Shown: piece by piece, positions 3,832 through 56,211 of the stretch | Layout: each line of letters opens with the position of its first letter | Position numbering within the stretch: position 1 is the stretch's first letter | Origin: Myxococcales bacterium | GTDB taxonomy: Bacteria > Myxococcota_A > Polyangia > Nannocystales > Nannocystaceae | Direction: 5' to 3' | DNA length: 64,000 bases | Assembly: GCA_020633315.1 (NCBI GenBank) | Contig: JACKDV010000004.1 | Location: 320,071 to 384,070, forward strand | Program-made: the position numbers and the translations under genes | Notes under the pieces: generated by a model | Databases searched by the model: none | What the model was told of the DNA's origin: nothing | Seen by the model: only the letters and a program-made list of their open reading frames with translations

Positions 3832-4421
3832 TGCCGGTCCGCAACAGCTTACCATCATTGCCATTCTCGACCACCAATTCACGCGACCACCAAAACCGAC
3901 ATATCCCCGGTCCCGTGTTCAACACCTATGCAGTTCCCAGACATCATCGTAGCCCCCCTTGGCACTCGGAATTCTCCACTTTGCACGCAAGACCGGGGTT
4001 TCGCACGGCGAGATGCCGCGTGATTTCCAGTCACCCTATCACACCCACCGACCCCCCCACCATACCGGAGATCCCGCGGCCATGCCCGCGCCAATGCCTC
4101 GCAGCACCTCCCCGGACCTCCCGCTCGCCGATTCCACAGGCCATCGAGACCTCCCGGAACATCCCCAACCCCATTGCACTGCGCCCCGTGACCTCCCGGG
4201 ACATCTCCAACCCCACCGCACGGCCCGTCGAGACCTCCTGGGCATCCCCAACCCCATTGCACTGCGCCCCGCGACCTCCCCGGGTCTCTCCAATCCCCCA
4301 TGCACAGCCCCGCCGGATCTCCCGGGACCTCGCGCCCCTGACCCCTTCGAGCCAATCGCACTTTTTCGTCGACCCGCAGTGATCGAATCCCGTCCTCGCG
4401 CCACGTTACCTCCACACCGTC
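3832..4421. promoter_or_regulatory. Non-coding flank between the array and cas4-cas1. It is AT-richer next to the last repeat and has a C-rich top strand. It would be the leader if the array is transcribed from the minus strand.
   Basis: No credible ORF. The two + strand ORFs (3759..4382, 3959..4525) are proline-rich, low-complexity translations of C-rich DNA. Composition shifts immediately after the last repeat. Confidence 0.4.
4140..4312. repeat. Two tandem imperfect direct repeats of about 83 bp (about 80 % identical). The core is CGAGACCTCC..ATCCCCAACCCCATTGCACTGCGCCCCG(T/C)GACCTCCCGGG.
   Basis: Seen by eye: copy A starts near 4145 and copy B near 4228, each with the shared core ATCCCCAACCCCATTGCACTGCGCCCCG. 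Confidence 0.7.
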
Positions 4422-36598: not shown

Positions 36599-37033
36599 AT
36601 GAGCAGCGTCGAAGACCTCGATTCCTTCTTCATTCAGACCGGTCTTCAGTACGAGCAGATCGGCAAGAGCACCTGGGTCATCACCCCCGACAGCGCGCAT
36701 CCGGCACAGATCGGCGTCAGCGCCGACCCTCCCGTGGTCGTGTTCTCGATCGTGATGTTCACCCTCGGCGGGCAAGAGGAGGACCACGAGGGTCTGTTCC
36801 GCTGCCTGCTCGAGCTCAACGCCGAGCTGCTCCACTCCTCGTACTCCCTACAGGGTGATAGAGTCGTTCTGTCCGGGGCGCAGCAGCTGGAGAACCTCGA
36901 CTTCAACGAGTTCCAGGCCATGATCGACGACATGTGCATGGCGCTGGACAACCACTGGGACAAGCTCGCAACCTGGGGCCGACCCGCGAGCCAGAGCCAG
37001 GACACCGGCGCGGCCGCCGAGGGGAGCGCGTAG
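36599..37033 (+). CDS. YbjN-like putative chaperone or sensory-transduction regulator, 144 aa
   Basis: YbjN-family fold pattern and the conserved position immediately upstream of pspA. Confidence 0.45.
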   Translation: MSSVEDLDSFFIQTGLQYEQIGKSTWVITPDSAHPAQIGVSADPPVVVFSIVMFTLGGQEEDHEGLFRCLLELNAELLHSSYSLQGDRVVLSGAQQLENLDFNEFQAMIDDMCMALDNHWDKLATWGRPASQSQDTGAAAEGSA

Positions 37034-37034
37034 C

Positions 37035-37871
37035 ATGGGACTGTTTTCACGGCTGGGCACGCTGATCCGCTCGAACATCAACGAGCTGATCAACAAGGCC
37101 GAGGACCCCGAGAAGATGCTCAATCAGGTCCTCGTCGACATGAAGTCGCAGTTGATCGAGGCCAAGAAGCAGGTCGCGGTCGCGATCGCCGACGAGAAGC
37201 GCCTCAAGAAGCAGTACCAGCAGGAGGCCGCCAAGGCGGCGGAGTGGGAGCGCAAGGCGATGCTGGCCATCAAGGCCGGCGACGACAACCTCGCCAAGGC
37301 CGCGCTGGCGCGCAAGGGCGAGCACGACGAGGTCGCCGAGACCCTCAAGCAGCAGTGGGAGGCGCAAAAGCAGTCGGTCGAGCAGCTCAAGCTCGCCCTG
37401 CGCGGCCTCGACACCAAGATCGAGGAAGCCAAGCGCAAGCGCAACATCCTGGTCTCGCGGCAGAAGCGGGCCGAGGCGCAGCGCACGATCAACGAGACCC
37501 TCTCCAACATCAACTCCACCTCGGCGTTCGACACCTTCGAGCGCATGTCCGATCGCGTCACCCAGCTCGAGGCCGAGGCCGAGGCCACGGCCGAGATCGG
37601 CGGTGCCCTGCCCGAGGCCTCGCTCGAGTCGCAGTTCAAGGCGCTCGAGGCCAGCACCGGGGTGGACGACGAGCTCGCCCGCCTCAAGAACAAGATGGCC
37701 CTGCAGGCGGCCGAGGAGGAGCGCAAGGCGATCGGCGGCAGGGTGGACGAGCCTGCTCCCAGCGCCAGCACGGCCGACGTCGCGAGCGACGAGGAGGTCG
37801 AGAGCGCCTCCAAGGCGGCCGAGATCGACGCGCAGCTCGAGGAGCTCAAGCGCAAGCTCGCCGACGCGTAG
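37035..37871 (+). CDS. pspA: PspA/IM30 family (phage-shock protein A-like) protein, 278 aa
   Basis: The N-terminus MGLFSRLGTLIRSNINELINKAEDPEKMLNQVLVDMKSQL is the canonical PspA/Vipp1 start, followed by long coiled-coil heptads. Confidence 0.9.
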   Translation: MGLFSRLGTLIRSNINELINKAEDPEKMLNQVLVDMKSQLIEAKKQVAVAIADEKRLKKQYQQEAAKAAEWERKAMLAIKAGDDNLAKAALARKGEHDEVAETLKQQWEAQKQSVEQLKLALRGLDTKIEEAKRKRNILVSRQKRAEAQRTINETLSNINSTSAFDTFERMSDRVTQLEAEAEATAEIGGALPEASLESQFKALEASTGVDDELARLKNKMALQAAEEERKAIGGRVDEPAPSASTADVASDEEVESASKAAEIDAQLEELKRKLADA

Positions 37872-38779: not shown

Positions 38780-39316
38780 TCAGCCCTTCTTGGCCGCGCC
38801 CTTGCCCTCCCCGCCTTGCTTGGCCTTGGCCTTCTTGCCCTCGGCCTTGCCTCGCTTGCCCTTGGCGCCGCGCAGCAGCCCGCGGAAGCCGTGGCGCTCG
38901 ACCGCCTGCGCCATCTGGGCTCGTTGCTCGGGGGTGAGCAGCGCATGCACCTCCATCATCGCGTCGAAGGCCCGGGCGCGCAGCTCGTGCTCGTGGGTCT
39001 CGATGGCAGCGAGCGTGGCCTGCATCGCCTTCTCGTCGGGCTTGGCCTTGGCCAGCTCGGCCGCGAGCTTGGCCTGCAGCCGCTCGATCGCCTCGCGGTC
39101 GGCCTTGGTGTCGGCGCGCAGCTCGGTCATGACCGCCTGCAGCTCCTGCTTCTGTTGATCGCTGCACTCGAGGCGCTCGCACAGGCCTCCGTGGGATCGC
39201 TCGGCACGGGCGTCCGCGCCATCGGGCTTGGCCACGGCCACGCTGCCCAGGCCCAGCAGGGCCAGGCCGCCGATGGCCGGAAGGAGGATGCGGGTCTTGG
39301 GGCTCCACAGCTTCAT
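38780..39316 (-). CDS. Periplasmic LTXXQ-motif protein (Spy/CpxP family), 178 aa, with a Lys/Gly-rich C-terminal tail
   Basis: Signal peptide MKLWSPKTRILLPAIGGLALLGLGSVAVA. LTPEQRAQM motif. GAGGAG ribosome-binding site before the ATG. Confidence 0.7.
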   Translation of the reverse strand: MKLWSPKTRILLPAIGGLALLGLGSVAVAKPDGADARAERSHGGLCERLECSDQQKQELQAVMTELRADTKADREAIERLQAKLAAELAKAKPDEKAMQATLAAIETHEHELRARAFDAMMEVHALLTPEQRAQMAQAVERHGFRGLLRGAKGKRGKAEGKKAKAKQGGEGKGAAKKG

Positions 39317-39591
39317 GGTCGATCTCCTCGGTGGTCGATCGGTCGGACGACGGGCCTCGTGGGATGGTGTGGGCCCGGCGATCCTCCGCGCTCGTCTGCC
39401 CAGCATGCCCGGCGGGGCGCCCTGCGGCCGTCCACCTGCGGTAAACGCGAGGTAAACCGGAACGCCCCTCCGCGCCCGTCGGCGGCCTCCCGCGGGGGGC
39501 CGTCCTTGCGAAGCCAGCGGCGGCGGGCACACTGGGGGCGGACGCGTCCGTTGCCCCCCGCTTGGCAGAATGTGATATCAGGCGCAAACGG

Positions 39592-39888: not shown

Positions 39889-42800
39889 GTGACGAGCTCG
39901 CGCCCCACCGATCCCTCCTCTCCCGAGAGCCAGGCCTGGCTCCGTCAGGTCCGCGCCAACGTCAAGGCTCAGCTCTTCGGGCCCCCGCTGTCGAGCGATC
40001 CGCCCAGCGTCCCCAGCCAGGAGCGGACCGAGCTCGGCGAGGGCGAGCAGGCGAGCCGCGAGGAAGTGGCCGAGCCCACCCGCATCGGCCGCTTCGTCGT
40101 CATCAAGCGCATCGGCGAGGGCGGCATGGGCATGGTCTACGCCGCCTACGACGACACCCTCGATCGCAAGGTGGCCGTCAAGCTGCTGCACCCGCGCGGC
40201 TCCGAGGCCAGCCCCGACGCCCAGGCCCGCCTGATCCGCGAGGCCCAGGCCCTCGCCCGCCTCTCGCACCCCTCGGTCATCCACGTCTACGAGGTCGGCA
40301 CCTGGCAGGACCAGGTCTACGTGGCGATGGAGTTCGTCGACGGCACCACCCTGGCCCACTGGCAGCGGCAGGAGGGGCGCACCTGGAGGGAGGTGCTCGA
40401 GGCCTACGTGGCGGCGGGGCGCGGGCTCGCGGCCGCCCACGCGGCGGGCATCGTGCACCGCGACTTCAAGGCGGCCAACGTGCTCGTGCGCACCGACGGC
40501 GCCGTGCGGGTCGTGGACTTCGGGCTCGCGCGACAGGAGATGGAGCTGAGCTCGCGCCCGGCCGAGCTCTCCGAGGAGACGCCCAGCCTCTCGCTGCCCT
40601 CCGGCGAGAGCATGACCTCCCCCGACGCGCCACTCACCCGCACCGGCGTCATCATGGGCACGCCGGCCTACATGGCGCCCGAGCAGCACCTGGGCCAGCG
40701 CGCCGACCTGCGCAGCGATCAGTTCTCCTACTGCGTGTCGCTGTACGAGGCGCTCTACGGCTTTCGGCCGTTCCCCGGCGAGACCCTGCCCAAGCTGCGC
40801 CGCAACGTGCTCGCGGGGCGCTTCGAGCAGCCGCCGCGCTACACCGACATCCCGCCCCGGATCTTCCGCGTGCTCGAGCGCGGCCTGCAGGTGCACCCCG
40901 ACGATCGCTACCCGTCGATGGAGCCCCTGCTCGACGAGCTCACCCACGATCCCCGGGTCGCGCTGCAGCGCGTGGCCTGGGGCCTGCTGGTGGTGGCGCT
41001 GGTGGGCGCGGTGGGCCTGCTGTGGTGGTCCGAGCGCGAGGAGCGGGAGGCCCGGTCCGAGGGCGAGCGCCTGCGCGCCCAGTTCGAGCGCGCGCGGGTG
41101 CTCAACGCCGAGGACGAGCTGCGCCGCGCCCAGTCCCGCTCGGTCTCGGAGAAGTACGACGACCTGCTGCTCGCCTACGCCCGCGAGGTGATCGACGACG
41201 ATCCCACCGCGGCCCTCGCCACGCTCAAGCACCTCACCCCCACCAACGACGGCTGGCTGCCCGCGGCCCGCACCATCGCCGCCGACGCGATCCAGCGCGG
41301 GGTGATCCACCGGACCCTCGAGCCCGGCCTGGGCCGGCTGGCCCGAATCGCCTTCGCCGAGGACGGCTCGCTGGTGATGGCGGGCAAGGGCCTCGCGCGG
41401 TGGGACTCGACCACCGGCGAGCTGCAGTACCTCGAGACCCCCGTCGCGCCGCTGCGCGACCTGGCGATCACTCCCGAGGCCACCCGCATCGCCGCGGTCG
41501 GCCGCGACGACGCGCTCTACCTGTGGACCCGCGGCCAGGGCACCTCCGATCCCGGCACCATGCGCCGCATCCCCGACGCCGACGGGCCCCTGGTGGCGGT
41601 GGCCCTGTCCCGCGACGGCCAGCGCATCGCCACCGGGGCCGAGGACGGCACGGTGCGCCTGCTCGACTGGGACGGCCGCAGCACCCGGGCCATGCGAGAT
41701 CACAAGGGGGCGATCCGCTCGCTCGACTTCTCGGCCGACGGCAGCATGCTGGCCAGCGCCAGCGACGACGGCACCATCCGGCAGTGGTTCCTCGAGCGCG
41801 AGACCCACTGGAGCCTCGAGCACGGCCCCGGGGTGAGGGACGCCCGCTTCGACGGCCAGGGCATCGCGATCTGGTCGGTGTCGGAGGACGGCGAGGTGCG
41901 GCGCTGGTCCACGGCCAAGGGCAAGCCGCTGCCGGTCTCCGGCTACGACGGCGTGACCCTGCTGCAGCGCAGCCCCTCGGGCGAGCACACCCTGGTCTGC
42001 CGGGGCGATCGCGAGCTGATGCTGCTCGGCGACGGCGACCCCCAGCCGCTGCGCGGCGTGCATGCCATCGTCAACGCGATCGCGGTCTCCGACGACGGCG
42101 CGTGGGCGGCCGCGGCCACCGGCGAGCAGGTCCGGCTGTGGCGCCTGACCGGGATCGGCGACCTCGGCACCCAGCCCGACGGCTCGCGCATCACCCCCAC
42201 CGCGGGACCCCTCACCGCGCTGGCCTTCTCGCGGGCGGGAGGGCTGCTGGCCTCGGCCACCCGCCAGGGCCTGGTGCAGCTGTGGTCCGAGCAGGGCGAC
42301 CCCCGCGGCGACCTCGGCCAGCACAGCCGCACCGTGATCGACCTGGGCTTCTCGCCGCAGGGCCACGAGCTGGCCGCCATCGACGAGGACGGAGGCATCA
42401 TCGTGTGGTCGGTGGCCGATCGCGACCAGCCGCCGGTGCAGCTACGGCGCGAGGGCTCCCGGCGCTCGGCCGCCTGGGCGTGGTCACCCGACGGCGAGAC
42501 GATCGCCGCGCCGCGCTGCGACGGCATGGAGCACTGCGAGGTCGCGCTCTACCCGATCACCGGCGAGGAGCCGCAGGCCCTCGCCGTCACCGACTCGCCC
42601 GCGATCACGCTGCGCTACTCGCCCTCGGGGCTCACCCTGCTCAGCGATCATCCCACCGACGCCTGGCTGTGGGCCCTGCCCGAGGGGCGCGGCCGTCCGC
42701 TCGAGTGGCCCGACGGGGTCCCGGCTGGCGAGCGCCTCGCCTTCGCCTACGTGCACGGGGGCCTGCGCATGGCGACGGCCGAGGTGCTGCGCGACGAGGA

Positions 42801-43299
42801 GGCCCGCATGCTCTCCACCACGCTGCGGGTGTGGCACATCGGCCAGGAGAGCGGCGACGTGCACCTGCTGTTCGAGGAGCCCGAGCTGCGCACCCTGCTG
42901 GTCGACACCGAGCGACGCACCCTGCTGCTGCGCACCCACGACGACAACGATCTGCTGTGGCGGCTGGCTGGCGATCACTTCCGCCTGCTGCCGTCGGTGG
43001 GCACCGGGCACGAGCGCCTCATCGTCTCTCCCGACGCCCGCGTGCTGCTGCTGCGCCCCCGCTACGAGCGCGGGCGGGCTCCCGACAGCCTGTGGGTCGA
43101 CGTGGAGTCGGGGCAGACCCGACGCTTCTCTCGACGCAACGACCCCATGGCCTGGTCGGCGCGGGGCACCGTGGCCGACGTCTACGGCCGCCGCGGGCTG
43201 CGGACCTGGAGCGACCCCACCCCCGACGAGATCGGCCTGTTCCTGCGCTGGCTCGACGATGCCACCGACGCCAAGGTGGACCCCACCCTCATCCGCTGA
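39889..43299 (+). CDS. Ser/Thr protein kinase fused to a WD40 beta-propeller region, 1136 aa
   Basis: Kinase motifs IGEGGMGMVY, HRDFKAANVLV, DFGLAR, YMAPEQ. A TM segment (LLVVALVGAVGLLWW). Multiple WD40-like units (GAIRSLDFSADGSMLASASDDGTIRQW ...). Confidence 0.85.
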   Translation: MTSSRPTDPSSPESQAWLRQVRANVKAQLFGPPLSSDPPSVPSQERTELGEGEQASREEVAEPTRIGRFVVIKRIGEGGMGMVYAAYDDTLDRKVAVKLLHPRGSEASPDAQARLIREAQALARLSHPSVIHVYEVGTWQDQVYVAMEFVDGTTLAHWQRQEGRTWREVLEAYVAAGRGLAAAHAAGIVHRDFKAANVLVRTDGAVRVVDFGLARQEMELSSRPAELSEETPSLSLPSGESMTSPDAPLTRTGVIMGTPAYMAPEQHLGQRADLRSDQFSYCVSLYEALYGFRPFPGETLPKLRRNVLAGRFEQPPRYTDIPPRIFRVLERGLQVHPDDRYPSMEPLLDELTHDPRVALQRVAWGLLVVALVGAVGLLWWSEREEREARSEGERLRAQFERARVLNAEDELRRAQSRSVSEKYDDLLLAYAREVIDDDPTAALATLKHLTPTNDGWLPAARTIAADAIQRGVIHRTLEPGLGRLARIAFAEDGSLVMAGKGLARWDSTTGELQYLETPVAPLRDLAITPEATRIAAVGRDDALYLWTRGQGTSDPGTMRRIPDADGPLVAVALSRDGQRIATGAEDGTVRLLDWDGRSTRAMRDHKGAIRSLDFSADGSMLASASDDGTIRQWFLERETHWSLEHGPGVRDARFDGQGIAIWSVSEDGEVRRWSTAKGKPLPVSGYDGVTLLQRSPSGEHTLVCRGDRELMLLGDGDPQPLRGVHAIVNAIAVSDDGAWAAAATGEQVRLWRLTGIGDLGTQPDGSRITPTAGPLTALAFSRAGGLLASATRQGLVQLWSEQGDPRGDLGQHSRTVIDLGFSPQGHELAAIDEDGGIIVWSVADRDQPPVQLRREGSRRSAAWAWSPDGETIAAPRCDGMEHCEVALYPITGEEPQALAVTDSPAITLRYSPSGLTLLSDHPTDAWLWALPEGRGRPLEWPDGVPAGERLAFAYVHGGLRMATAEVLRDEEARMLSTTLRVWHIGQESGDVHLLFEEPELRTLLVDTERRTLLLRTHDDNDLLWRLAGDHFRLLPSVGTGHERLIVSPDARVLLLRPRYERGRAPDSLWVDVESGQTRRFSRRNDPMAWSARGTVADVYGRRGLRTWSDPTPDEIGLFLRWLDDATDAKVDPTLIR

Positions 43300-43532: not shown

Positions 43533-44573
43533 ATGGCTGCCGAGTACATCGAGAAGATCCAGGAGCTCGCGGGGCGCTTCCGCGACGACGAGCGCAACCT
43601 GACCCTGTACTTCCCCGACCTCGAGACCGCCCCGGCGGGCGACAGCTACAACCGCGTGTTCGGCCCGCCGGTGGGGCTCACCGACGATCGCTGGCCCACC
43701 TTCCCCGAGCTGGGCGAGCTGATGCAGCAGGCCAACTGCATCAAGCACTGGGATCCCCGCGACCAGCGGATGGAGCACGTGTTCACGATCGACCTGCGAG
43801 GCATCCGCCTGCTGGGCGCCCCCGAGCACGCCGCCGCGATGATGCTCTTCCTGAGCAACGCGAGCTTCCACCGCGCGTGCGCCGACGGCAACCGCCACAC
43901 CGAGGTGCTGTTCCTCGACCACGAGGAGGCCGAGCGCGGCCTGTACCGCGGCCGCCTGCCCGAGCGCTCGCTGTACCGCTGGAGCCGTCGCTTCAGCCTG
44001 GTGCCCATCGAGGTGCCCGGCGAGGTGTTCGACGTGCCCGAGCTCGACCTGCTGCCCGACGATCTGCTGGTGGAGCTGTTCGAGGCCATCCGCGAGGCAC
44101 CGGCCCGCCTGGGCGGCTGCCCGATCTCGATGGACGACGGCCCCGAGCTCCGCGGTGGCTGGAGCGAGAGCACCCCCACCCTGCCGTGGAGCGAGCCGCA
44201 GCGCAGCAGCCTCACCGTGCCCTACGCCGGTCGCTCCAAGCCGCGGCTCGCCGACAGCAGCCTCACCATCCCCTACGCTCCCTCCACGCCGACGATCGAC
44301 GAGAGCAGCCGGACCATCCCCTACGATCTGCGCTCGCTCGACCGTCGCCCCACCGTGGTGGAGGGCAGCGGGCTGCTCGACGGCGGTCGCTTCGACTCCT
44401 ATGCCGATCGCGATCCCGCCAGCGCCCTGACCTTCGGGCACCGCACGACCCCCCGCGCGTCCAACCGCAGCACCTTCCTCATGCAGTTCCAGCGCCGCTT
44501 CGCCGACGTGAACCTGGGACGGCCCGGGGTGATGTACGTGTCGCGCCGCAGCGCATACGTCCCCACCCACTGA
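43533..44573 (+). CDS. Hypothetical protein, 346 aa, with C-terminal short repeats (SSLTVPYA / SSLTIPYA / SSRTIPYD)
   Basis: Long ORF with normal amino-acid composition. No motif recognised. Confidence 0.5.
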   Translation: MAAEYIEKIQELAGRFRDDERNLTLYFPDLETAPAGDSYNRVFGPPVGLTDDRWPTFPELGELMQQANCIKHWDPRDQRMEHVFTIDLRGIRLLGAPEHAAAMMLFLSNASFHRACADGNRHTEVLFLDHEEAERGLYRGRLPERSLYRWSRRFSLVPIEVPGEVFDVPELDLLPDDLLVELFEAIREAPARLGGCPISMDDGPELRGGWSESTPTLPWSEPQRSSLTVPYAGRSKPRLADSSLTIPYAPSTPTIDESSRTIPYDLRSLDRRPTVVEGSGLLDGGRFDSYADRDPASALTFGHRTTPRASNRSTFLMQFQRRFADVNLGRPGVMYVSRRSAYVPTH

Positions 44574-44745
44574 GCCGGGCCCGGCGCGGACGAGCGACGA
44601 TTTCTCGTCGCTCGGGGCCCCTGCCGGGGACCGGGGACCGTAGCTGCGCGAATGGCACGAAAGTACCAAGACGCTCGATTCCGCACATTAGCCGCGGGGC
44701 CGGTGCGAATGGAAGTTCTTGGTACCGTTTGCGCGGCCGGCTCCC

Positions 44746-45360
44746 ATGCTCACTCCGGAGATCATCGCGCGGATGCTCGACGCATCCGAACGGGAGCGTC
44801 GGGAGCTGCACCAACAGGTCGTCGAGGCCGTCCATCGGACCACCCACTTCACGCTGCTCGCGTGTCAGGGACCCCCGTCCATGGTGGAGGACCTGGTCCA
44901 CGAGATCCTCGCATACCTGTTCCGCCGCAATGGCGCGGTGCTCCGCAGCTGGGATCCCCAACGGGCCAGCTTCCGCGGCTACCTCGGGATGATCGCCAGC
45001 CGCTTCGTGCGGCGTCGGCTCGGCAACCGGCTGGTGATCATCTCGCTGGGCGACATCGGGCTCGCCGAGGTCGACGACGCCGACATCGACGATCTGCTGG
45101 CCTACCGCGCCGCGCTCGAGGAGATCCTCGCCTGGCTCGACGCCCGCAACGGCGACCACGATCGCGAGCGCTTCAACGCCCTGTTCATCGACGGGCGCTC
45201 TGCTGCCGACATCGCCGCTGGTGAAGGCGTCACGGCCGATGCCATCTACACATGGAAGTCACGACTGCGCGGGCGCATCGCCAAGGCGTTCCCCCACGTG
45301 GTCGAGCTCCTTCGCAGTGGCGCTCGCAGCGGTAAACGGCACGGAGGGGACGAGTCATGA
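44746..45360 (+). CDS. ECF-type RNA polymerase sigma-70 family factor, about 204 aa
   Basis: Region-2-like segment (FRGYLGMIASRFVRRR) and a region-4 HTH (ADIAAGEGVTADAIYTWKSRLR). Confidence 0.7.
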   Translation: MLTPEIIARMLDASERERRELHQQVVEAVHRTTHFTLLACQGPPSMVEDLVHEILAYLFRRNGAVLRSWDPQRASFRGYLGMIASRFVRRRLGNRLVIISLGDIGLAEVDDADIDDLLAYRAALEEILAWLDARNGDHDRERFNALFIDGRSAADIAAGEGVTADAIYTWKSRLRGRIAKAFPHVVELLRSGARSGKRHGGDES

Positions 45361-45412
45361 CACACTGCGTGGTGTCAGCGTTCGGTGAGCACTCTCCTAG
45401 GGGGGTACGGGC

Positions 45413-46264
45413 ATGAACGGCTTCCCACCCGACGGCCCCGATGCCGACGAGCCGGCACCGGAGTCGATCCTGGAGGACCTCGGACGCCTGGCTCGAGCCA
45501 AGCGTGATCGCGGGGACCAGGCGCCCGCGAGCTACGAGCCGCCCAGCCCCGCCAAGGTCCAGGCATTCCTCGACGAGCTGTTGGGCACCAGCGATCCCGA
45601 GGTGGCCGACGAGCGACCGAAGCCGCCCAAGCCTCGGCGTGTCGTGGGCAAGGATCGCCCGACCCGTGCGAGCTCGACCAAGAACGGCGAGAGCCCCTCG
45701 CACTGGCTCGGGTACCTGGTCACCGCGATCGCCACCGCGGCCGCGATCGTCCTCGTGGTTCGCAGCGTGCCCGAGCCCTCGCCCACCCCCGAGGAGCCAC
45801 CGGTGCCGACGGCGAGGGTGGAGGAGGCGAGCCCCCCTCCCTTCGGCTCCTGGCGCATCGACGGCGGCAGCCCTCCGCCCGACCACCAGGGCCCCGCCAA
45901 GCGGATGCAGGTGTGCTCCGATCGTCCCATGCGGCTCACGGTGGCCGTGGCCAGCGACGCGACGATCGACCCCGAGGCGCCGCTGCAGCTCGTGCTCGTG
46001 GCCACGCCCGCGGAGGGCCCCAGCCATCGCTTGCTCTTCGACATCGACGGCGACCAGCGCTTCGCGTGGGAGGATGGCGGCCGCGCGCTCGTGCTGCACG
46101 GGACCCTGGGCTCGCTGGCCCCGCTGACTCCGGGGACCTGGGTGCTCGAGCCCCGCATCGGCAGCCCGGGCGCATGTGCCACGCACGACGACTCCCGCCG
46201 CTGCACCTTCCTGCCCGCGATGGCGATCGAGGTGGACGGAGATGACTGTGCCGGGGCCGAGTAG
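45413..46264 (+). CDS. Putative anti-sigma factor, 283 aa, with a single TM helix
   Basis: It lies directly downstream of the ECF sigma gene. It has a cytoplasmic N-terminal domain, then a TM segment (WLGYLVTAIATAAAIVLVV), then a periplasmic domain. Confidence 0.55.
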   Translation: MNGFPPDGPDADEPAPESILEDLGRLARAKRDRGDQAPASYEPPSPAKVQAFLDELLGTSDPEVADERPKPPKPRRVVGKDRPTRASSTKNGESPSHWLGYLVTAIATAAAIVLVVRSVPEPSPTPEEPPVPTARVEEASPPPFGSWRIDGGSPPPDHQGPAKRMQVCSDRPMRLTVAVASDATIDPEAPLQLVLVATPAEGPSHRLLFDIDGDQRFAWEDGGRALVLHGTLGSLAPLTPGTWVLEPRIGSPGACATHDDSRRCTFLPAMAIEVDGDDCAGAE

Positions 46265-49172
46265 GGCCCTGTTCCGGCCGGTACTGAGCATCTCGCTCGC
46301 CATCGCGTTGTCGTGGATCGCCGGTGACCTCGGCCCGAGGCAGACAGCCTCCGATGACCTCGCCCCCGTGACCGAGCTCGAGCCCGAGGCGGGCGACCTC
46401 GCCCCCAAGCCGCCCGGGCTCGAGGTGCTGTGGGGCGGCTGCAAGGAGCTCGAGCTGCCCCCCACCCCCGACGAGCCCACGACCTGCGTCATGCTCGTCA
46501 AGCCCGTCCCCGCCGCGCGGCCGGGGCTGCTGCGGCTGTGGCTGCCCTCCGCGGTCTCGAGCCCGCGGCTCACCCTCGCCGGGCATCCGCTGGTGGCAGA
46601 GGAGGAGGAGGTCGACAGCGGCACCAGCCTCGCGGTCCGCCTGCCCCACTCGGGACGCCTGGTGCTCACCGGCACGATCGCCGGCCGAGCCACGGAGCTC
46701 CTGGTCCTCGACGTGGAGCAGCGACCGCTGGTCACCCATCGCCTCAAGCAGCGCCTCGACGACGCGGTGGGCAAGCCCGAGCTCCAGCAGGCGCTGGAGC
46801 AGGAGTGGAGGGAGGCGCTCGCCGGGGAGACGCGCCTCCGCGAGCGCCTGGTGCTCACCCGCTACCTGCAGTTCGTGACCTTCGACCAGGGCCGCTGGCT
46901 GGACTCGGCCCGACTGGCCGAGGAGGCGGCCCGCATGGCCCACACCCTCGGCCTGGCCCGGCAGGAGTGCGACAGCGCGTGGGCGGCCGTGTTCAACTAC
47001 AGCCAGGAGCTGGGGCTCCACGCCGAGGCCGATCGGGTCCTCGCGACGAGCTGCCGCTACGAGCATCGCGTGCCCGACCTGGTGATGGTGGGCACCTACT
47101 TCCGCAGCATCGTCGACCTCAACCGCGGCAACCTGGCCGGGGTGCGGCGCACGGTGGAGCAGGGGATCGACATCGCCCGCCGGCTCCGCTGGGCCAAGTG
47201 GGAGCGGATCGCCCTCTATCCCCTGGTGCAGGCCCTGTCGGGTCAGGGGCGCTTCACCTGGGCCCGACGGCTGATGGATCGCTCGGCCGAGCTCGCCTCC
47301 CGGGTCGAGCCCGCCAGCGAGGTGGAGGCGTGCGAGGGCGAGCTGGGCGAGCTGCTGCTCCGCGGCCAGATCGAGCTCCGCGAGGCGCGGATGCTGGGCC
47401 GTCGCCCCTCGGCCGCGCGCGCGCCATTCGAGCGCGCCGTGGCCCTCGCCGCCGACGAGCACCGCTGTCCCGCCCACGACAACATCCGGGGGATCGCGGC
47501 GGGGATCCAGCTCGAGCTGGCCTGGGTCGAGCTCGAGGAGGGCGATCTCGACGCGGCCCGGCAGCACCTCGATGCGGTCGCCCTCGGCGTGCTCGACCCC
47601 GAGAAGCGACGCAGCCACCACCTGCTGCACACCGAGCTCGCCCTCGGCCGCGGTGAGCTCGCGGCGGCCCGGCGCTGGCTCGACCAGCTTGAGGCGCTCG
47701 TCGCGAAGGGCGAGGGAGACGACGCCGAGCCCCCGCGGGATCGCTGGCATCGCCTGGTGCTCAGCGCCCGCCTGCACCGGGCCCAGGGGCACCGCCGACG
47801 CGCGATCGAGACGCTCACCCTGGCCCAGGAGGAGCTGGGTCGCAGCGCTCGTGCGGTGGGCAGGGGAGTGGATGCCGACCGCTACGTGGCCATGCGCCGC
47901 GACAGCGGCGAGCTGCTGGTGCGGCTGCTGCTCGAGGAGGGGCTCGTGGAGCCCGCCCTGTGTGCCGCCCGGATGACCCGCATCCTCGGGCTGCTCGGAC
48001 CCACCACCACGGAGACCGAGGCCCCGCCCGCCGCCGCCGATACGCCTGCCACCACTGCCGGCGCCACCGCGGATCCCCGCGATCGACTCGAGCGCTACTC
48101 CTGGTACCTCCCAAGCGACATCCCGGTCGACGAGCGGATCGCGGTCGAGGCAGGGCTCGACGAGCTGATGTCGGCTCGCCCCGCCACCACCACGGTGCAC
48201 TGCGAGGATCTCCCCTCGCCGGCGCCCGGCGAGGTCTCGCTGCTGCCCTTCCGGGACGCGGAGCGCTGGGTGGTCTTCGCCTGGGATGGGAGCGGCTCGG
48301 TGATCGCCCACCCGCTGCCGCCCGGTCCCCTGCCTCACGATGCGGCCGGGCTCGGCGAGCGACTCGTCGACCCGGTCGCGCCCCTGCTCGCCGACGCCCG
48401 ACGCCTGCGCGTCGTCGCTCCGCCCGAGCTGGCCGAGCTGAGCCCCGCGAGCCTGCAGTGGAACGGAGCGCCCATCGGTGACGCGATGACGGTGGTGACG
48501 GCGGTCGACCTGCCGGTGGAGCCACGCGAGGCCCCGAGCGAGGCCTCGGTCGCCCTGGTGTACTCCGACCCCCAGCGGCTCCTGCTCGAGCACTACGACG
48601 CGATCGAGGGACGCTTCGGACGCTGGGCCACCCAGCTCGGCACCGGCGGCATGAGCATCGCGATGCTCCACCGACCGTCGCAGGGCCACGTCTCGCTCCG
48701 CGAGGTGCTCGAGGGCAGCGAGGACACCGAGCTGACCGTGCTCTACGGCTTCTCGTCCGCACATCCCTCCCGCTACTCGATGCTCGTCGAGCCGGGCGAG
48801 CACGACATCGATCGGACCACCTTCAACCTCGGCGCGACCGGCCTGCTGCGCGCCGACATCCTCGCTCAGCAAGGGCACGCGCCGCTGCACGTGATCCTGG
48901 CGCACTGCCACTCGGCGACGATCGATCCCTATGGGATCTCGGGCGCGGTGGGCCTGGCCCAGAGCTACGTGCAGGCCGGCTCCGAGTGGGCCGTGGGCAC
49001 GACGAGCGAGCTGCACCCCACCACGGTGGTGCGGCTCGTCGATGCGCTGCTCGATGCCTACCCCGAGGACGCGAGCGTGGAGAGCATGGCTCGCGTGCTG
49101 CAGCGAGTGGAGCACCGCCTCGTCACCGAGGGGTCGCTCGACGCCGGCAAGCTCCGCCTGTGGGTGCGCTGA
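46242..49172 (+). CDS. TPR-repeat protein with a C-terminal CHAT (caspase-like, clan CD) protease domain, about 976 aa
   Basis: N-terminal signal or TM segment, then about 600 aa of TPR-like helical repeats. The C-terminal CHAT signature includes the catalytic Cys context HVILAHCHSA..GLAQSYVQAGSEWAVGT and an upstream His (FSSAHP). It overlaps the anti-sigma stop by 23 bp. Confidence 0.7.
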   Translation: MTVPGPSRALFRPVLSISLAIALSWIAGDLGPRQTASDDLAPVTELEPEAGDLAPKPPGLEVLWGGCKELELPPTPDEPTTCVMLVKPVPAARPGLLRLWLPSAVSSPRLTLAGHPLVAEEEEVDSGTSLAVRLPHSGRLVLTGTIAGRATELLVLDVEQRPLVTHRLKQRLDDAVGKPELQQALEQEWREALAGETRLRERLVLTRYLQFVTFDQGRWLDSARLAEEAARMAHTLGLARQECDSAWAAVFNYSQELGLHAEADRVLATSCRYEHRVPDLVMVGTYFRSIVDLNRGNLAGVRRTVEQGIDIARRLRWAKWERIALYPLVQALSGQGRFTWARRLMDRSAELASRVEPASEVEACEGELGELLLRGQIELREARMLGRRPSAARAPFERAVALAADEHRCPAHDNIRGIAAGIQLELAWVELEEGDLDAARQHLDAVALGVLDPEKRRSHHLLHTELALGRGELAAARRWLDQLEALVAKGEGDDAEPPRDRWHRLVLSARLHRAQGHRRRAIETLTLAQEELGRSARAVGRGVDADRYVAMRRDSGELLVRLLLEEGLVEPALCAARMTRILGLLGPTTTETEAPPAAADTPATTAGATADPRDRLERYSWYLPSDIPVDERIAVEAGLDELMSARPATTTVHCEDLPSPAPGEVSLLPFRDAERWVVFAWDGSGSVIAHPLPPGPLPHDAAGLGERLVDPVAPLLADARRLRVVAPPELAELSPASLQWNGAPIGDAMTVVTAVDLPVEPREAPSEASVALVYSDPQRLLLEHYDAIEGRFGRWATQLGTGGMSIAMLHRPSQGHVSLREVLEGSEDTELTVLYGFSSAHPSRYSMLVEPGEHDIDRTTFNLGATGLLRADILAQQGHAPLHVILAHCHSATIDPYGISGAVGLAQSYVQAGSEWAVGTTSELHPTTVVRLVDALLDAYPEDASVESMARVLQRVEHRLVTEGSLDAGKLRLWVR

Positions 49173-49321
49173 GGATCGAGGCACGACGCCTCGACGATCT
49201 ACATCTCTAGCTCTCGTCGCGATCGATTTCGGGCAGAAACGATCGACTGGGAACACTACTCGTGCAGACGCGGCCGACACTTGGGTCGGTCGCGGGCTCC
49301 CACCACGAAGAGAGGTATGCA

Positions 49322-49645
49322 ATGCCCCAGTGCCCGCAATGTCGCGGGGACCTGATCGAAGACACGGGTAACGACGTGTGGATCGTGGTCTTCTCGACTC
49401 TCACCACCACCGCCGCCGGTCTCGACACCGACTCGTTCGAGATCCACGTAGTCCTTTCCGACTCCACCACGGTCGACAAGGGGCTCCCGGACAACTCGGG
49501 TGTCGTCAGCGGCGATCGGACCGTCTACACCTGGACCTTCGCCTCGCCCGGGACCCCGGTCTCCGGGACCATCGAGGTGGAGCACTCCTCCCTCGGCCTG
49601 CTGGTCCAGGCGCTGGACGTGTCCGAGATGGGCGCGGCGGCCTAG
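49322..49645 (+). CDS. Small hypothetical protein with an N-terminal zinc-ribbon (CPQC), 107 aa
   Basis: GAAGAGAGG ribosome-binding site upstream of the ATG. Normal composition. Confidence 0.45.
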   Translation: MPQCPQCRGDLIEDTGNDVWIVVFSTLTTTAAGLDTDSFEIHVVLSDSTTVDKGLPDNSGVVSGDRTVYTWTFASPGTPVSGTIEVEHSSLGLLVQALDVSEMGAAA

Positions 49646-51333: not shown

Positions 51334-52179
51334 TCAAAAGCGCAGCGTGGCCGCGATCCCGGCGCCTCGTCGCGAGGCCCAGGGCGACAGTCGGGCGCGA
51401 CCGGCCACGCCCTCGGCGGGCTTGCGCTTGACGGAGACGATCACCAGCACCAGGCCCGTCACCGCCATCGCCCCGCCCACGCCGAACAGCACGTCGGCGC
51501 CGAGGGCCAGGCCGCGGCCCTTGTCCACGGTGTCGCTGCGCTCCTCGTAGGTGTGCTGGTCGGCGAGGGCATTGCTGCGCGACAGGGCCAGGCCCCCCAG
51601 CGCGCCTGCGGCCCCCAGCGCCGCGCCGCCCGTACCGAGCAGCACGTAGCCGGCGATCCGCATCGGCGGGGTGCGCTTGCGTGGCTCGGGCTCGGGCTCC
51701 GGCTCCGGCTCGCTCACCGGCTCCGGCTCGGGCTCGGGCTCCGGCTCGCTCACCGGCTCGGGCTCGGGCTCCGGCTCCTTGACCGCGGTCTCCTCGAGGA
51801 TCGCTCGCAGCACCCGCAGGCGCTCGAGCCCCTTCTCGCGGGCCTCCAGCGGCACGCCGGGCTCCTTGACGAAGCGCTCGTAGTACTCGACCGCGCTCTC
51901 GAGGTTGCCCTGCTCCTCGCGGATCCGGCCGATGTTGAACAGGTAGTTGGGCTCGGGCTGCAGCGCGTAGGCCTGCTCGAACAGCTCGACCGCCTCGTCG
52001 TACTCCTTGGCCTGGAACTTCTCCACCGCCTCGGAGTTGAGCGCGTCCACCTGCTCCTGCACGGAGGGGCCGGCCCAGGCCACGGAGGGGACGGCCGCGA
52101 GGCCCAGGGCGAGCGCGACCGTGCCCGCGACGACCGACCGCAGGGTGCGGCCGGGATGGCTGTGAGAGCGCTGGTTCAC
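51334..52179 (-). CDS. TPR-repeat membrane protein with signal peptide, a (PEPEPEPVSE)n linker and a C-terminal TM segment, about 281 aa
   Basis: GTG start overlaps the TGA stop of the upstream kinase (GTGA). Signal peptide VAGTVALALGLAAVPSVAWA. A 48-bp DNA tandem repeat at about 51660-51790. Confidence 0.5.
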   Translation of the reverse strand: MNQRSHSHPGRTLRSVVAGTVALALGLAAVPSVAWAGPSVQEQVDALNSEAVEKFQAKEYDEAVELFEQAYALQPEPNYLFNIGRIREEQGNLESAVEYYERFVKEPGVPLEAREKGLERLRVLRAILEETAVKEPEPEPEPVSEPEPEPEPEPVSEPEPEPEPEPRKRTPPMRIAGYVLLGTGGAALGAAGALGGLALSRSNALADQHTYEERSDTVDKGRGLALGADVLFGVGGAMAVTGLVLVIVSVKRKPAEGVAGRARLSPWASRRGAGIAATLRF

Positions 52180-54917
52180 TTGCCTCCGACGGGCAGGAAG
52201 ATACCGTCGTCCTTGCCCTGCTTCGAGTCCATGAAGACCTCGGGCTTGGGCTTGGGCTTGGGCTCGGTCTTCGCAAAGGGATCGGGCGTGGCCGAGGTCT
52301 TGGGCTCGGTCGAGGTCTTGGGCTCGTCGGTCCGGGGCTTGGTGCGCTTGCTGCCCTTGCCCTTGGTGTCGCCGGGAGCCGGCGTGGGCTCGCTCGGAGA
52401 CGACTCGGCCGGCACCAGCTCGGCGGTCACGGCACCATTGGCTCCGGGTCGGACGTCGATGGTGGTCTGCCAGGCCACGTGGCCCTCGGCGGTCACGCGC
52501 ACCCGATGCGCCCCCAACGGCAGCTCGAGGTGGACGGGGGCCTCGCCTCGATCCTCGCCGTCGACCTCCACCCGCGCCCCTTCGATCGCGCGGACCTCCA
52601 CGGTGCCCACGTCGGCGGCGGGCTCCTCGTCGCCCGGCGCCGCCGCGACCGCACCGTCCTTGGGCGACTCGCCGGGCACCGGCGCCGCGACCTGGGCCGG
52701 AGGATCGCGCGGCGCTTCCTCGCCGCCATTGAGGATGAGGTAGGCGAACAGCCCGCCCAGGGTGAGCGCGGCCAGGCCGGCCACCGCGACGATCACCCCG
52801 AGCCTCATGCCCCCATCGGAGGCCGCGGGCGGCATGCCCACGAAGGTGGCCGGCTGCCCCAGGGCATCGGAGGCAAAGGGCACCGTGGGCGAGGCCGTCT
52901 CGGGTGAGGTGCCGACCGAGCCGGTGTCCTCGTTGAGGCCGACGACGTCGTCGTCCTCTTCCTCCTCCACGGAGATCGACAGGGCGTCGGAGACCTCGGC
53001 GTCGAGCAGCGGCGGGATGGTGGTGCGCCGGGCGGTGTTGCGCTCGTCGTCGAGCTCGAGCTCGAGGCGCTCCACCGCTTCCTTGGCGTCGGCCTTGGTC
53101 ACCCGCACGGTGGCGGCCCCCGGGCGATTGCCCGACTTGATCGGGGCCCGGGTCACCGGGGCATCGGAGATCGGAGCGCCCACCGGCGGGCTGGTGGTCA
53201 GCGGCTCGGGACCCGACTCCACCCGCGGCAGCGGCCGCGCCGCAGAGCCCAGCCGCGGCATGGGTCGCGCACCCGAGCCCGACTTGGGCAGCGACCGCAT
53301 ACCAGAGCCCGGCGTGGGCGGCGTGGGCGGCAGCGGTCGCACGCCGGAGCCCGGCGTGGGCGGCGTGGGCGGCAGCGGTCGCATACCAGAGCCCGGCGTG
53401 GGCGGCGTGGGCGGCAGCGGTCGCATCCCGGAGCCAGACCTCGGCCGCGGCTGCGCCCCCGAGTCCGGCGTGGGCGGCAGCGGTCGCGCCCCAGAGCCAG
53501 GCTTCGGCAGCGGCACCGCCCCAGAGCCCGCGTCGCTCGGCAGCGGTCGCACCCCAGAGCCCGTCCTCGGCAGCGGCACCGCCCCAGAGCCCGCGTCGCT
53601 CGGCAGCGGTCGCGCGCCCGAGCCCGGCTTGGGCCGAGGCATCAGCCCCGAGCCCGTGGGCGAGCGCAGACGGGAGCCTCCCGGCGGAGGTGGTGGTGGA
53701 GGCGGAGGCGGCATCGCCCGCGCCCCCGAGCCCGGCGTGGCCACTCGCGGCCGTGGCCTCACCCCCGAGCCCGTCGGAGATCTCTTGCGCCTCGGCAGCT
53801 CCTGCTGGGCCTTCTCCTTGAGCGCGGCGATCTCCTCCTCGGCCAGCTTGAGCGGGGCCTCGCCCGTCCGCGCCGCCTTGCGCAGCAGCGGTCGGGTCCA
53901 CTCCGCGCTGTCGGAGGTGTCCGACTTGAGCGCGGCGATGTTCGCCGCGCCCGAGCTCATGCGCGCCGCCCAGTAGGTCTCGGCCGCCACCCGGCTCTTG
54001 GCGGTGGCCTCGGGCAGCTCGAACAACGGCGCCGGCACGATCTCGAACAGCGCCTCCGCCATCGCGGTGGCGTCGACCGGTCGATCGTCGGGCTCCTTGG
54101 CCAGGCAGCTCTCGATCAGCTCGACGAGCTTGGGGGGGATGCGGTGGTTGGTGGGCAGGCGCTCGACGAGGCGCTTGGGCTTGCCGTGCACGTGGTTGAC
54201 GAGCACCGCCGCGTCGTTGTCCCCCGAGATCGGGGTCTCCCCCGTGAGCATCAAGAAGAACAGCACCCCGAGCGCGTACACGTCGACGCGGACGTCGATC
54301 TTCTCGCCACGGATCTGCTCGGGGGACATGTACGCCGCCGTGCCGATCACGTGGGCCTTGGTGACGTCGTCCTCCTCGTCCTCCTCGATCAGCCGGGCGA
54401 GGCCGAAGTCGAGCATCTTGACGTGGTTGGCCTTGCCCCCGTGCTCGCACAGCATGATGTTGGGCGGCTTGATGTCGCGCATCATGATGCCGCGCTCGTG
54501 CACGTAGCCGACCCCCATGAGGATCTGCGAGACGATGGGGACGAACTCCTCGAGCGGCAGGCGCTTGCGGCGATTGAGGTAGCGCCGCAGCGGCTCGCCG
54601 CGGATGAACTCCATCACGATGTACGTGCGGCCCTCGAAGTGGCCGTGGTCGTACATCTTCACCACGTTAGGGTGATCGAGCTCGGCCATCCGCTTGGCCT
54701 CGCGGTCGAAGCGGACCACCGCGTCGCGGTCCTCGGCCCAGTGCGGCGCGAGCACCTTGACCACCACCTCACGATCGCCGTCCTGCGTGTCGGTGGAGAG
54801 GTAGACCAGCCCCACCCCGCCCCGACCGATGAGCCGCTGGATCACATAGCGATCACCGACCGTCTTCCCGAGGAGAGGGTCATGGGAGAGCGAGTTGGTG
54901 GCCGACTGCGTCACCAT
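52176..54917 (-). CDS. Ser/Thr protein kinase with Pro-rich SGxRPLP repeats, a TM segment and a C-terminal PEGA domain, 913 aa
   Basis: Kinase motifs IGRGGVGLVY, MRDIKPPNIML, DFGLAR, YMSPEQ. Repeats coded by about 60-bp DNA tandem repeats (53240-53600). PEGA-like VEVDGEDRGEAPVHLELPLGAHRVRV. Confidence 0.85.
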   Translation of the reverse strand: MVTQSATNSLSHDPLLGKTVGDRYVIQRLIGRGGVGLVYLSTDTQDGDREVVVKVLAPHWAEDRDAVVRFDREAKRMAELDHPNVVKMYDHGHFEGRTYIVMEFIRGEPLRRYLNRRKRLPLEEFVPIVSQILMGVGYVHERGIMMRDIKPPNIMLCEHGGKANHVKMLDFGLARLIEEDEEDDVTKAHVIGTAAYMSPEQIRGEKIDVRVDVYALGVLFFLMLTGETPISGDNDAAVLVNHVHGKPKRLVERLPTNHRIPPKLVELIESCLAKEPDDRPVDATAMAEALFEIVPAPLFELPEATAKSRVAAETYWAARMSSGAANIAALKSDTSDSAEWTRPLLRKAARTGEAPLKLAEEEIAALKEKAQQELPRRKRSPTGSGVRPRPRVATPGSGARAMPPPPPPPPPPGGSRLRSPTGSGLMPRPKPGSGARPLPSDAGSGAVPLPRTGSGVRPLPSDAGSGAVPLPKPGSGARPLPPTPDSGAQPRPRSGSGMRPLPPTPPTPGSGMRPLPPTPPTPGSGVRPLPPTPPTPGSGMRSLPKSGSGARPMPRLGSAARPLPRVESGPEPLTTSPPVGAPISDAPVTRAPIKSGNRPGAATVRVTKADAKEAVERLELELDDERNTARRTTIPPLLDAEVSDALSISVEEEEDDDVVGLNEDTGSVGTSPETASPTVPFASDALGQPATFVGMPPAASDGGMRLGVIVAVAGLAALTLGGLFAYLILNGGEEAPRDPPAQVAAPVPGESPKDGAVAAAPGDEEPAADVGTVEVRAIEGARVEVDGEDRGEAPVHLELPLGAHRVRVTAEGHVAWQTTIDVRPGANGAVTAELVPAESSPSEPTPAPGDTKGKGSKRTKPRTDEPKTSTEPKTSATPDPFAKTEPKPKPKPEVFMDSKQGKDDGIFLPVGGK

Positions 54918-56077: not shown

Positions 56078-56211
56078 GGGGGCCTCGGCCGACCACGGCC
56101 CGCCGCTCGCGGAGCGGCGTCTCGCGACCGCAGGCGGCTCCCGGAATTTCGGCCGATTTCGCGGCCCGAGGCGGCCGTACGCCGCGACCCGCGTGTTATT
56201 AGTGGTAGACG

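Follow-up and report, generated by a model that had tools for sequence, protein, structure and literature searches.

We describe a gene cluster in a 64,000-nucleotide stretch of DNA (hereafter, the window; GenBank assembly GCA_020633315.1, contig JACKDV010000004.1, positions 320,071 to 384,070 of the forward strand) from a Myxococcales bacterium of the family Nannocystaceae. Four genes follow one another on the forward strand (Table 1), encoding a sigma factor of the extracytoplasmic function (ECF) type (gene 1), a single-pass membrane protein (gene 2), a predicted exported protein with tetratricopeptide repeats (TPR) and a C-terminal CHAT-fold domain (gene 3), and a small protein with an N-terminal CPxCxG motif (gene 4). 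As relatives of this cluster fuse genes 2 and 3 behind a sigma gene, we lean somewhat towards reading the locus as a four-gene, split version of the envelope-to-transcription module known as DdvS/DdvA in Myxococcus xanthus, with a CHAT domain that here is most likely non-catalytic or at least non-canonical.

An earlier reading of the window, made from its letters and open reading frames only (hereafter, the sequence-only reading), had proposed three same-strand genes, and these, which are tightly spaced, are borne out by open reading frames with a coding-type third-position GC content (0.84-0.92, matching neighboring real genes in a window of ~70% GC) and by identical proteins in the public gene calls of the Myxococcales metagenome-assembled genome (MAG), on a contig of 587,987 bp. 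There, gene 1 is named "sigma-70 family RNA polymerase sigma factor" and gene 3 "CHAT domain-containing protein", with genes 2 and 4 listed as "hypothetical protein H6712_10665" and "hypothetical protein H6712_10675", respectively. Genes 1 and 2 are 52 nt apart, and no forward-strand terminator-like site was found within the cluster. For gene 3, we favor the start at ATG 46242 because its homologs share an N-terminal hydrophobic segment; this ATG is also preceded by a GAGG-type site. With that start, gene 3 overlaps the end of gene 2 by 23 nt, as had been proposed, though under the shorter NCBI call (934 aa) the overlap would vanish. The sigma/membrane protein/TPR-CHAT triad is thus real and co-transcribable, and it is co-conserved among relatives, as detailed below.

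Gene 1 on its own falls below the curated cut-offs of the sigma factor models (Sigma70_r2, E=0.0027 and 17.9 bits with a cut-off of 24; TIGR02937, 26.1 with a cut-off of 42.9). A profile of gene 1 with its orthologs and paralogs (A3, four sequences) aligns end to end with a solved ECF sigma factor (profile positions 11-192 with 9isn_F 16-192, E=5.5e-5) and also matches the solved SigH, CnrH, and SigE, while three of its four members match Sigma70_r2 and two match Sigma70_r4_2. Because of this end-to-end alignment and these matches among relatives, gene 1 is, by sequence comparison, a divergent ECF-type sigma factor, in agreement with the sequence-only reading. Its orthologs in two relatives, L001 (a 13-kb assembly) and L004 (Paraliomyxa miuraensis SMH-27-4, Myxococcota; NZ_JAOVZF010000140.1), share 38-40% identity with it, and the NCBI form is 195 aa long, starting at 44773.

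Gene 2 had been put forward as a single-pass membrane anti-sigma candidate. The topology holds, with a single strong hydrophobic helix (hydropathy peak 2.22 at residue 98), while the protein itself had no match in Pfam, NCBIfam, PADLOC, or PDB sequence and profile searches, and a profile of 12 N-termini of its counterparts in the wider family had no PDB profile match. In an AlphaFold2 (AF2) model, a long, Pro-rich, low-confidence linker joins the transmembrane (TM) helix to a beta domain of high predicted local confidence (pLDDT 80-93), and the Foldseek matches of the model, all of which concern this immunoglobulin (Ig)-like domain, are to Ig V and nanobody domains (E~1e-4). Four ectodomain cysteines (C168, C255, C264, and C279) are invariant across the closest relatives and gene 3 has paired invariant cysteines, which together are consistent with an oxidizing periplasm. 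Of 14 loci examined, 13 have a gene for a protein of this layout interposed between the sigma gene and the CHAT gene. Gene order, topology, and the fusions described below suggest that gene 2 acts as an anti-sigma factor, and we regard it as a candidate of a new type.

Table 1. Positions of genes, domains, catalytic codons, and neighboring genes in the window, and of gene 4 homologs in other loci (aa, amino acid residues of the encoded protein)
Feature	Position	Strand	Basis or remark
Gene 1, predicted divergent ECF-type (group IV) sigma factor, 204 aa	44746..45360	+	
Gene 2, single-pass membrane protein, candidate anti-sigma, 283 aa	45413..46264	+	
Gene 2 cytoplasmic helices	aa 16-32 and 46-57 (45458-45583)	+	AF2 model
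Gene 2 TM helix	aa 98-117 (45704-45763)	+	Hydropathy
Gene 2 periplasmic Ig-V-like beta-sandwich	aa 144-275 (45842-46237)	+	AF2, Foldseek
Gene 3, predicted exported TPR-CHAT-like protein, 976 aa	46242..49172	+	
Gene 3 N-terminal signal/anchor helix	aa 8-27 (46263-46322)	+	
Gene 3 beta-sandwich	aa 63-162 (46428-46727)	+	
Gene 3 TPR solenoid	aa 166-585 (46737-47996)	+	
Gene 3 disordered linker	aa 586-651	+	
Gene 3 CHAT-fold domain	aa 652-976 (48195-49169)	+	
Codon of F837, position of the canonical catalytic His	48750..48752	+	MAFFT and profile-profile alignments
Codon of C889, equivalent of the catalytic Cys (DdvA C907)	48906..48908	+	Alignment
Gene 4, small clade-specific protein, 107 aa, N-terminal CPxCxG	49322..49645	+	
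Protein of 346 aa directly upstream of the sigma gene	43533-44573	+	No family match
Ser/Thr kinase	39889-43299	+	
Ser/Thr kinase	52176-54917	-	
PspA/IM30 homolog	36924-37871	+	E=7.5e-55
Spy/CpxP-like LTXXQ / Metal_resist protein	38780-39577	-	
Open reading frame with weak Peptidase_C25 (gingipain-type, clan CD) match	56209-58176	+	E=9e-6; ~7 kb downstream
Gene 4 homolog in L001	10739-11074		
Gene 4 homolog in L004	~9865-10158		
Gene 4 homolog in L084	8402-8728		
Gene 4 homolog in L087	2954-3274		
Gene 4 homolog in L088	6927-7256		
Gene 4 homolog in L089	3893-4234		

The TPR-CHAT protein and its catalytic positions

Gene 3 alone matches the Pfam CHAT model (PF12770) at E=2.3e-4 and 21.1 bits, which is below the gathering cut-off of 24. 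Despite this sub-threshold score, its CHAT homology is secure by transitivity at the sequence level, because gene 3 and its nearest relatives (hereafter, the clade) align with canonical members of the wider family (hhalign E=1.6e-49 over 838 columns) that themselves pass the CHAT model (1e-32 and 9e-19), and the predicted fold agrees, with DdvA as the best Foldseek match (E~2e-9) and the TPR-CHAT proteins separase and craspase also matched. The TPR region matches solved TPR proteins, and the N-terminal hydrophobic helix is a predicted export signal, at the position of which canonical relatives carry a lipobox-like "VAGC" or "LAQC"; hence the proposal of a secreted or membrane TPR protein with a C-terminal CHAT domain stands. 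A 63-sequence family profile likewise found DdvA as its best PDB match (8rot_B, 991 aa; E=2.1e-11), confined to the C-terminal half of the CHAT domain (DdvA 829-983), followed by craspase CHAT proteins at about 3e-3, while a profile of the clade alone detected no CHAT protein in the PDB. Model confidence is low around the active site (pLDDT <50 at residues 806-872 and 889-901).

The His/Cys dyad of the CHAT domain had been named beforehand as the check that could undo the sequence-only reading, and only the Cys half of it is found. The catalytic Cys is invariant in all 154 sampled family sequences ("LSGCETG" in canonical members, with C889 lying in "ILAHCHS" in the window). At the His position, the canonical "LLHYAGHA" pairs with "LTVLYGFS" of the window in two MAFFT alignments (154 and 8 sequences), and profile-profile alignment likewise sets the canonical His against F837. 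The His is kept in 146 of the 154 sequences, and the eight exceptions are the window protein and its nearest relatives, though this fraction overstates the His-less share because the list of the top 150 family members is biased towards the query profile. As the Paraliomyxa ortholog also lacks the residue, it is absent from 9/9 clade members examined, which carry Phe, Leu, or Thr at the canonical His position, the surrounding motif reading "L(A/T)(V/L)LYG(F/L)G" or "FFGTG" in the His-less sequences. The eight His-less sequences form an exclusive clade in a neighbor-joining tree, a pattern consistent, on these sequences, with a single loss.

Because the catalytic His is missing from every clade member, the caspase-like protease cleaving the anti-sigma factor, as the sequence-only reading had it, is not the default interpretation at this locus, although such cleavage would still be plausible in the majority of family members, which have kept the His. 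With the His lost and the Cys loop still constrained, we read the CHAT domain of the window as non-canonical and, judging from the alignments, most likely non-proteolytic.

Family conservation, fusions, and the fourth gene

An exhaustive search with HMMER, using a profile built from four sequences, returned 28,151 cluster representatives (clusters at 50% identity) at E<=1e-3 and 1,335 at E<=1e-30. Of the best 150, most have a length of about 900 aa and are matched almost from end to end. Narrower searches recovered far fewer relatives. A word-indexed protein search yielded just 4-5 relatives of the CHAT protein, of its clade profile, and of gene 2; a genome scan with a two-sequence alignment had Paraliomyxa as its sole match; and a metagenome scan had no match with clade-specific patterns and 79 loci with canonical patterns.

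Co-conservation of the three genes, which the sequence-only reading had expected, is evident within the clade and beyond it. Counting contigs that extend far enough, the gene order of the window was found in 7 other distinct clade loci, with sigma, TM protein, CHAT, and gene 4 in this order in L001, L004, L084-86, L088, and L089/90; L087 ends just upstream of its CHAT gene and retains only that gene and gene 4. The genes of L001 share 40%, 55% (C-terminal part), and 41% identity with genes 1, 2, and 3 of the window, respectively, and the flanks of L084-86 are also syntenic with the window (the 346-aa gene and oppositely oriented binding-protein and TPR genes). A divergent version of the triad was present in 8 of the 9 informative metagenome loci of the wider family, i.e., canonical loci in which the CHAT gene is complete and sufficient sequence precedes it. 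In these canonical loci, an upstream sigma-like gene (profile E from 1e-21 to 1e-32) is followed, before the CHAT gene, by a gene whose product has its N-terminus in the cytoplasm, a single TM helix, and an ectodomain rich in beta structure, and a profile of canonical N-termini weakly detects the gene 2 proteins of the clade (E about 1e-4 to 2e-4). This recurrence of the three-gene arrangement is far beyond chance.

Genes 2 and 3 also occur as one polypeptide. Seven fusions of 1,027-1,177 aa (P0009, P0082, P0084, P0087, P0088, P0109, and P0116) combine a gene-2-like N-terminus (cytoplasmic segment, TM helix, and beta domain) with a TPR-CHAT body, the join beginning past the signal-peptide position so that the second signal peptide is gone. 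Upstream genes were looked up for P0009 and P0088, and in each case the gene immediately before the fusion is sigma-like (E=2.7e-53 and 2.7e-11, respectively). By the Rosetta-stone argument, these fusions indicate that the products of genes 2 and 3 work together and that gene 3 is periplasmic.

The module includes a fourth member, which carries no functional annotation. In the window, L001, L004, L084-86, L087, L088, and L089/90, hence in every His-less locus, gene 4 comes immediately after the CHAT gene, and a hidden Markov model (HMM) of gene 4 searched against about 90 loci (~0.6 Mb) matched His-less loci only and no canonical locus. We count gene 4 as a member of the module because this distribution coincides exactly with the loss of the catalytic His. 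Its product has an invariant N-terminal CPxCxG, no hydrophobic segment, and a third-position GC content of 0.84, with no Pfam match and no PDB match (including a profile search). The NCBI call is N-terminally shortened to 86 aa, by which the CPxCxG motif is lost. The spacer between the CHAT gene and gene 4 (49173-49321 in the window; also in L084, L088, and L004) is relatively AT-rich. Repeated palindromic (A)TCGATCGA-type motifs occur in this spacer in four of seven loci, and a conserved CACC(A/C)CGA..AG(A/G) stretch lies immediately before the gene 4 start.

Some loci of the family depart from the simple arrangement. Tandem modules are present in L001, L004, L009, and L018, with a second, paralogous module directly upstream of the orthologous one in L001 (302-5593) and L004 (~240-4855), where the window has the 346-aa protein. 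In both loci, the paralogous module encodes an Ig-domain-like protein, a sigma-like protein extended at its N-terminus, a TM protein, and a CHAT protein (944-984 aa) that retains both the His ("IGH") and the Cys ("ESC"). In L088 (MAG GCA_020431265.1; 2958-3877), the gene 2 homolog appears to be split over two overlapping frames (2958-3602 and 3410-3877), probably by a frameshift or an assembly error.

Genomic surroundings and upstream regions

The 346-aa protein directly upstream of the sigma gene is syntenic solely in the closest relative, L084, and lies outside the conserved module. Of the two large Ser/Thr kinases that flank the cluster, one carries fused WD40 propellers and the other a fused PEGA domain. 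Such kinases also flank L001, L002, L004, and L091; kinase control as a family feature was rejected, as kinase adjacency occurs in just 7 of 92 family loci. Two genes of envelope-stress type, for the PspA/IM30 and Spy/CpxP-like proteins, lie 5-8 kb upstream of this putative envelope-sensing module, and the ddvS-ddvA operon of M. xanthus includes a C25-type peptidase, as does, by a weak match, the downstream neighborhood of the cluster. Other neighbors at about 27-58 kb of the window, scanned against Pfam, include a periplasmic binding protein, UppS, an SDR protein, and an ABC ATPase, with no CBASS or CRISPR/Cas-like components among them. PADLOC was run on the products of the four module genes and on the 346-aa protein upstream, and it matched none of these five. 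Nothing near the locus suggests a defense island.

Rfam gave no match in the window, a simple sigma-70 promoter scan gave none either, and an alignment of three sigma upstream regions was uninformative. The 9-mer ATGGCACGA is intergenic in four clade loci (window 44652-44660, L084 ~3968, L001 ~10619, and L088 ~2968). Its position varies (upstream of sigma, after sigma, or upstream of gene 4), at least one window occurrence arises in 34% of shuffles, and the bases downstream do not fit the -12 element of sigma-54, so that we do not claim it as a promoter.

Proposed mechanism and its alternatives

In M. xanthus, the ECF sigma factor DdvS is paired with the transmembrane anti-sigma factor DdvA, which has a periplasmic TPR-CHAT region (PDB 8ROT and 8RW5; PMC6061681, PMC11506125), a precedent overlooked by the statement in the sequence-only reading that CHAT proteases are otherwise known from CRISPR- and defense-associated contexts. 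DdvA carries an N-terminal zinc anti-sigma domain (ZASD, CHCC), a TM helix, a flexible linker, and the TPR-CHAT region in one polypeptide, and fused DdvA-like anti-sigma factors with an N-terminal ZASD have been reported in Myxococcota (PMC11506125). The window module resembles this pair in belonging to the same phylum, in having the sigma gene first and then a membrane-anchored partner with a large periplasmic TPR-CHAT body, and in encoding a TPR-CHAT protein with an export helix about 0.9 kb downstream of an ECF sigma gene. Its fused relatives likewise present a cytoplasmic domain, TM helix, linker, and TPR-CHAT region after a sigma gene. It differs in that the anti-sigma-like and TPR-CHAT parts are encoded as separate polypeptides, both of which have an export or anchor signal of their own, in that the cytoplasmic part lacks the CHCC zinc domain (the fused relatives also lack the ZASD motif), in having an Ig-like domain and a beta-sandwich compared with DdvA as described, in the lack of an equivalent of H862 (F837 in the window), and in having a fourth small gene and no defense island nearby. 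The literature searched contained no description of this split, non-ZASD family or of its His-less clade.

Other published systems share parts of this picture. Craspase, a type III-E CRISPR complex of Cas7-11, Csx29 (TPR-CHAT), Csx30, and the RpoE-like CASP-sigma (PMC10028731), has the TPR-CHAT fold and a sigma link in common with the window module; however, it is cytoplasmic and RNA-guided with an intact His-Cys dyad, whereas the window protein is predicted to be exported, no Cas genes were found nearby, and its His is lost. The actinobacterial ECF54 group has CHAT, subtilase, and carboxypeptidase genes nearby and is described without an anti-sigma factor (PMC8999054, PMC7826278). As a published ECF-CHAT neighborhood with proposed proteolytic control it is similar to the window; however, no evidence of kinship with gene 1 was obtained, and the group was set aside as a precedent on account of its different phylum and the reported lack of an anti-sigma factor.

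For the split DdvS/DdvA-like module, we propose a chain of events. Inferred in it are the binding of sigma by gene 2, the contact of gene 2 with gene 3, the nature of the cue, the steps of proteolysis, and the function of gene 4. Gene 2 would hold the sigma factor at the inner membrane through its short cytoplasmic part of two helices, while its periplasmic Ig-like domain would dock on the exported TPR-CHAT protein, with the latter serving in the periplasm as a receptor or a shield. A cue from the periplasm, on being sensed by the TPR-CHAT subunit, could then alter the contact between the two proteins and expose gene 2 to envelope proteases, i.e., site-1 cleavage followed by RseP-type site-2 cleavage, by which sigma would be freed. 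In most of the wider family, where the His-Cys dyad is intact, the CHAT domain itself may make the first cut, as proposed for DdvA, while in the window clade it would most likely act as a non-catalytic or at least non-canonical binding or sensing module around the invariant Cys loop. Gene 4, as a small cytoplasmic CPxCxG protein, might be a target of the sigma factor or an added cytoplasmic partner. In sigma-E control by regulated intramembrane proteolysis (RseA/RseB/DegS/RseP), RseB guards the periplasmic domain of the single-pass anti-sigma factor RseA and must be displaced before proteolysis. In functional terms, a non-catalytic gene 3 has its nearest analog in this arrangement, though RseB is a small lipid- or lipopolysaccharide-binding protein with no homology to gene 3 and no TPR-CHAT architecture. 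Inactive caspase folds have precedents in the pseudo-protease domain of separase and in cFLIP as a pseudo-caspase partner, which are eukaryotic and cytoplasmic with no sigma link, whereas the window protein retains a strongly conserved Cys. Deleting the TPR-CHAT domain of DdvA permitted RseP cleavage (PMC11506125).

We acknowledge that several results weigh against this proposal. The cytoplasmic part of gene 2 consists of only two helices of modest confidence in the AF2 model (pLDDT about 60-74), with no known anti-sigma domain detected by Pfam, NCBIfam, or PDB profile searches and neither a Cys nor the HxxxCxxC zinc-binding motif of the DdvA ZASD in its N-terminus. Both AF2 models (genes 2 and 3) are of medium quality, from alignments of 4-5 sequences, and 12 regions upstream of sigma and small genes share no bipartite ECF-type motif above shuffled controls. 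Even for DdvA, CHAT-mediated cleavage is hypothetical, as the H862A and C907A variants had no phenotype under the conditions tested (PMC11506125). Finally, within the clade, conservation of gene 3 over 30-residue stretches peaks at residues 884-913 around C889 (mean column conservation 0.86 vs 0.62 over the whole CHAT domain), which speaks against a dead site and would allow for non-canonical catalysis.

This last point bears most directly on the idea that the CHAT domain is still an active Cys protease, with H888 or H883, the latter conserved in most clade members, substituting as the general base and with a site-1 cut in the linker or Ig domain of gene 2, which we consider unlikely. Besides the invariant C889 and its constrained surroundings, it would be favored by the motif "P(R/L)HVILA(H)C", which sets a His near the Cys in most clade members (H888 adjoins C889), and by the Pro-rich linker of gene 2, which resembles the DdvA linker proposed as a cleavage site (PMC11506125). 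However, neither substitute is constant, with H888 replaced by Leu in P0007 and Ala in P0021, and with H883, six residues upstream of C889 on the same strand, replaced by Arg in P0021, and the canonical His position itself holds Phe, Leu, or Thr throughout the clade. To our knowledge, no clan-CD peptidase functions without the canonical His.

Less probable still, in our view, are two alternatives concerning how the sigma factor is controlled and for what purpose. Conserved neighbors of ECF sigma genes can be targets as well as regulators (PMC7826278), so that genes 2-4 might be outputs of the sigma regulon, with sigma controlled otherwise, e.g., transcriptionally or by a neighboring Ser/Thr kinase. 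The want of a recognizable anti-sigma domain in gene 2 and the kinases that flank this and other loci fit such a scheme, which is nonetheless improbable given the scarcity of kinase adjacency across the family, the conserved and classical anti-sigma layout, in which the gene right behind the sigma gene encodes a one-TM protein whose N-terminus is cytoplasmic, and the gene 2-gene 3 fusions that recreate the proven DdvA anti-sigma architecture beside a sigma gene. Alternatively, the module could regulate phage defense, with a periplasmic phage cue switching on an immune island as for DdvS/DdvA. DdvA is both the closest solved structure and the closest architecture, the DdvS regulon gives phage resistance (PMC11506125), and the C25-like open reading frame downstream has its counterpart in the ddvS-ddvA operon, yet the PADLOC and neighborhood scans described above had no defense-related match, and only a subset of DdvA-like pairs lies near defense genes according to the authors of the DdvA study (PMC11506125); we hold this explanation to be very unlikely.

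Returning to the split DdvS/DdvA-like module, a fuller combined version of it is possible but doubtful in our judgment. Here, a pseudo-caspase clade with a strongly constrained lone-Cys pocket would serve as a non-proteolytic, ligand- or redox-sensing periplasmic lid on an Ig-domain anti-sigma factor of a novel type, with the CPxCxG protein as a partner, within a very large split family, apparently centered on Myxococcota and with at least 1,335 clusters (50% identity), of which DdvS/DdvA would be a distant fused cousin.

For annotation, "CHAT domain-containing protein" should not be equated with "protease" at this locus. More broadly, DdvS/DdvA-type logic also exists as a split three-protein form, which is abundant, as seen from the representatives at E<=1e-30. 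It also offers subunits that can be handled separately and expressed more easily than a membrane protein of 991 aa, and Paraliomyxa miuraensis provides a culturable host. Together, the fused and unfused, His-containing and His-less versions form a natural comparison set for asking whether proteolysis is needed for TPR-CHAT signaling.

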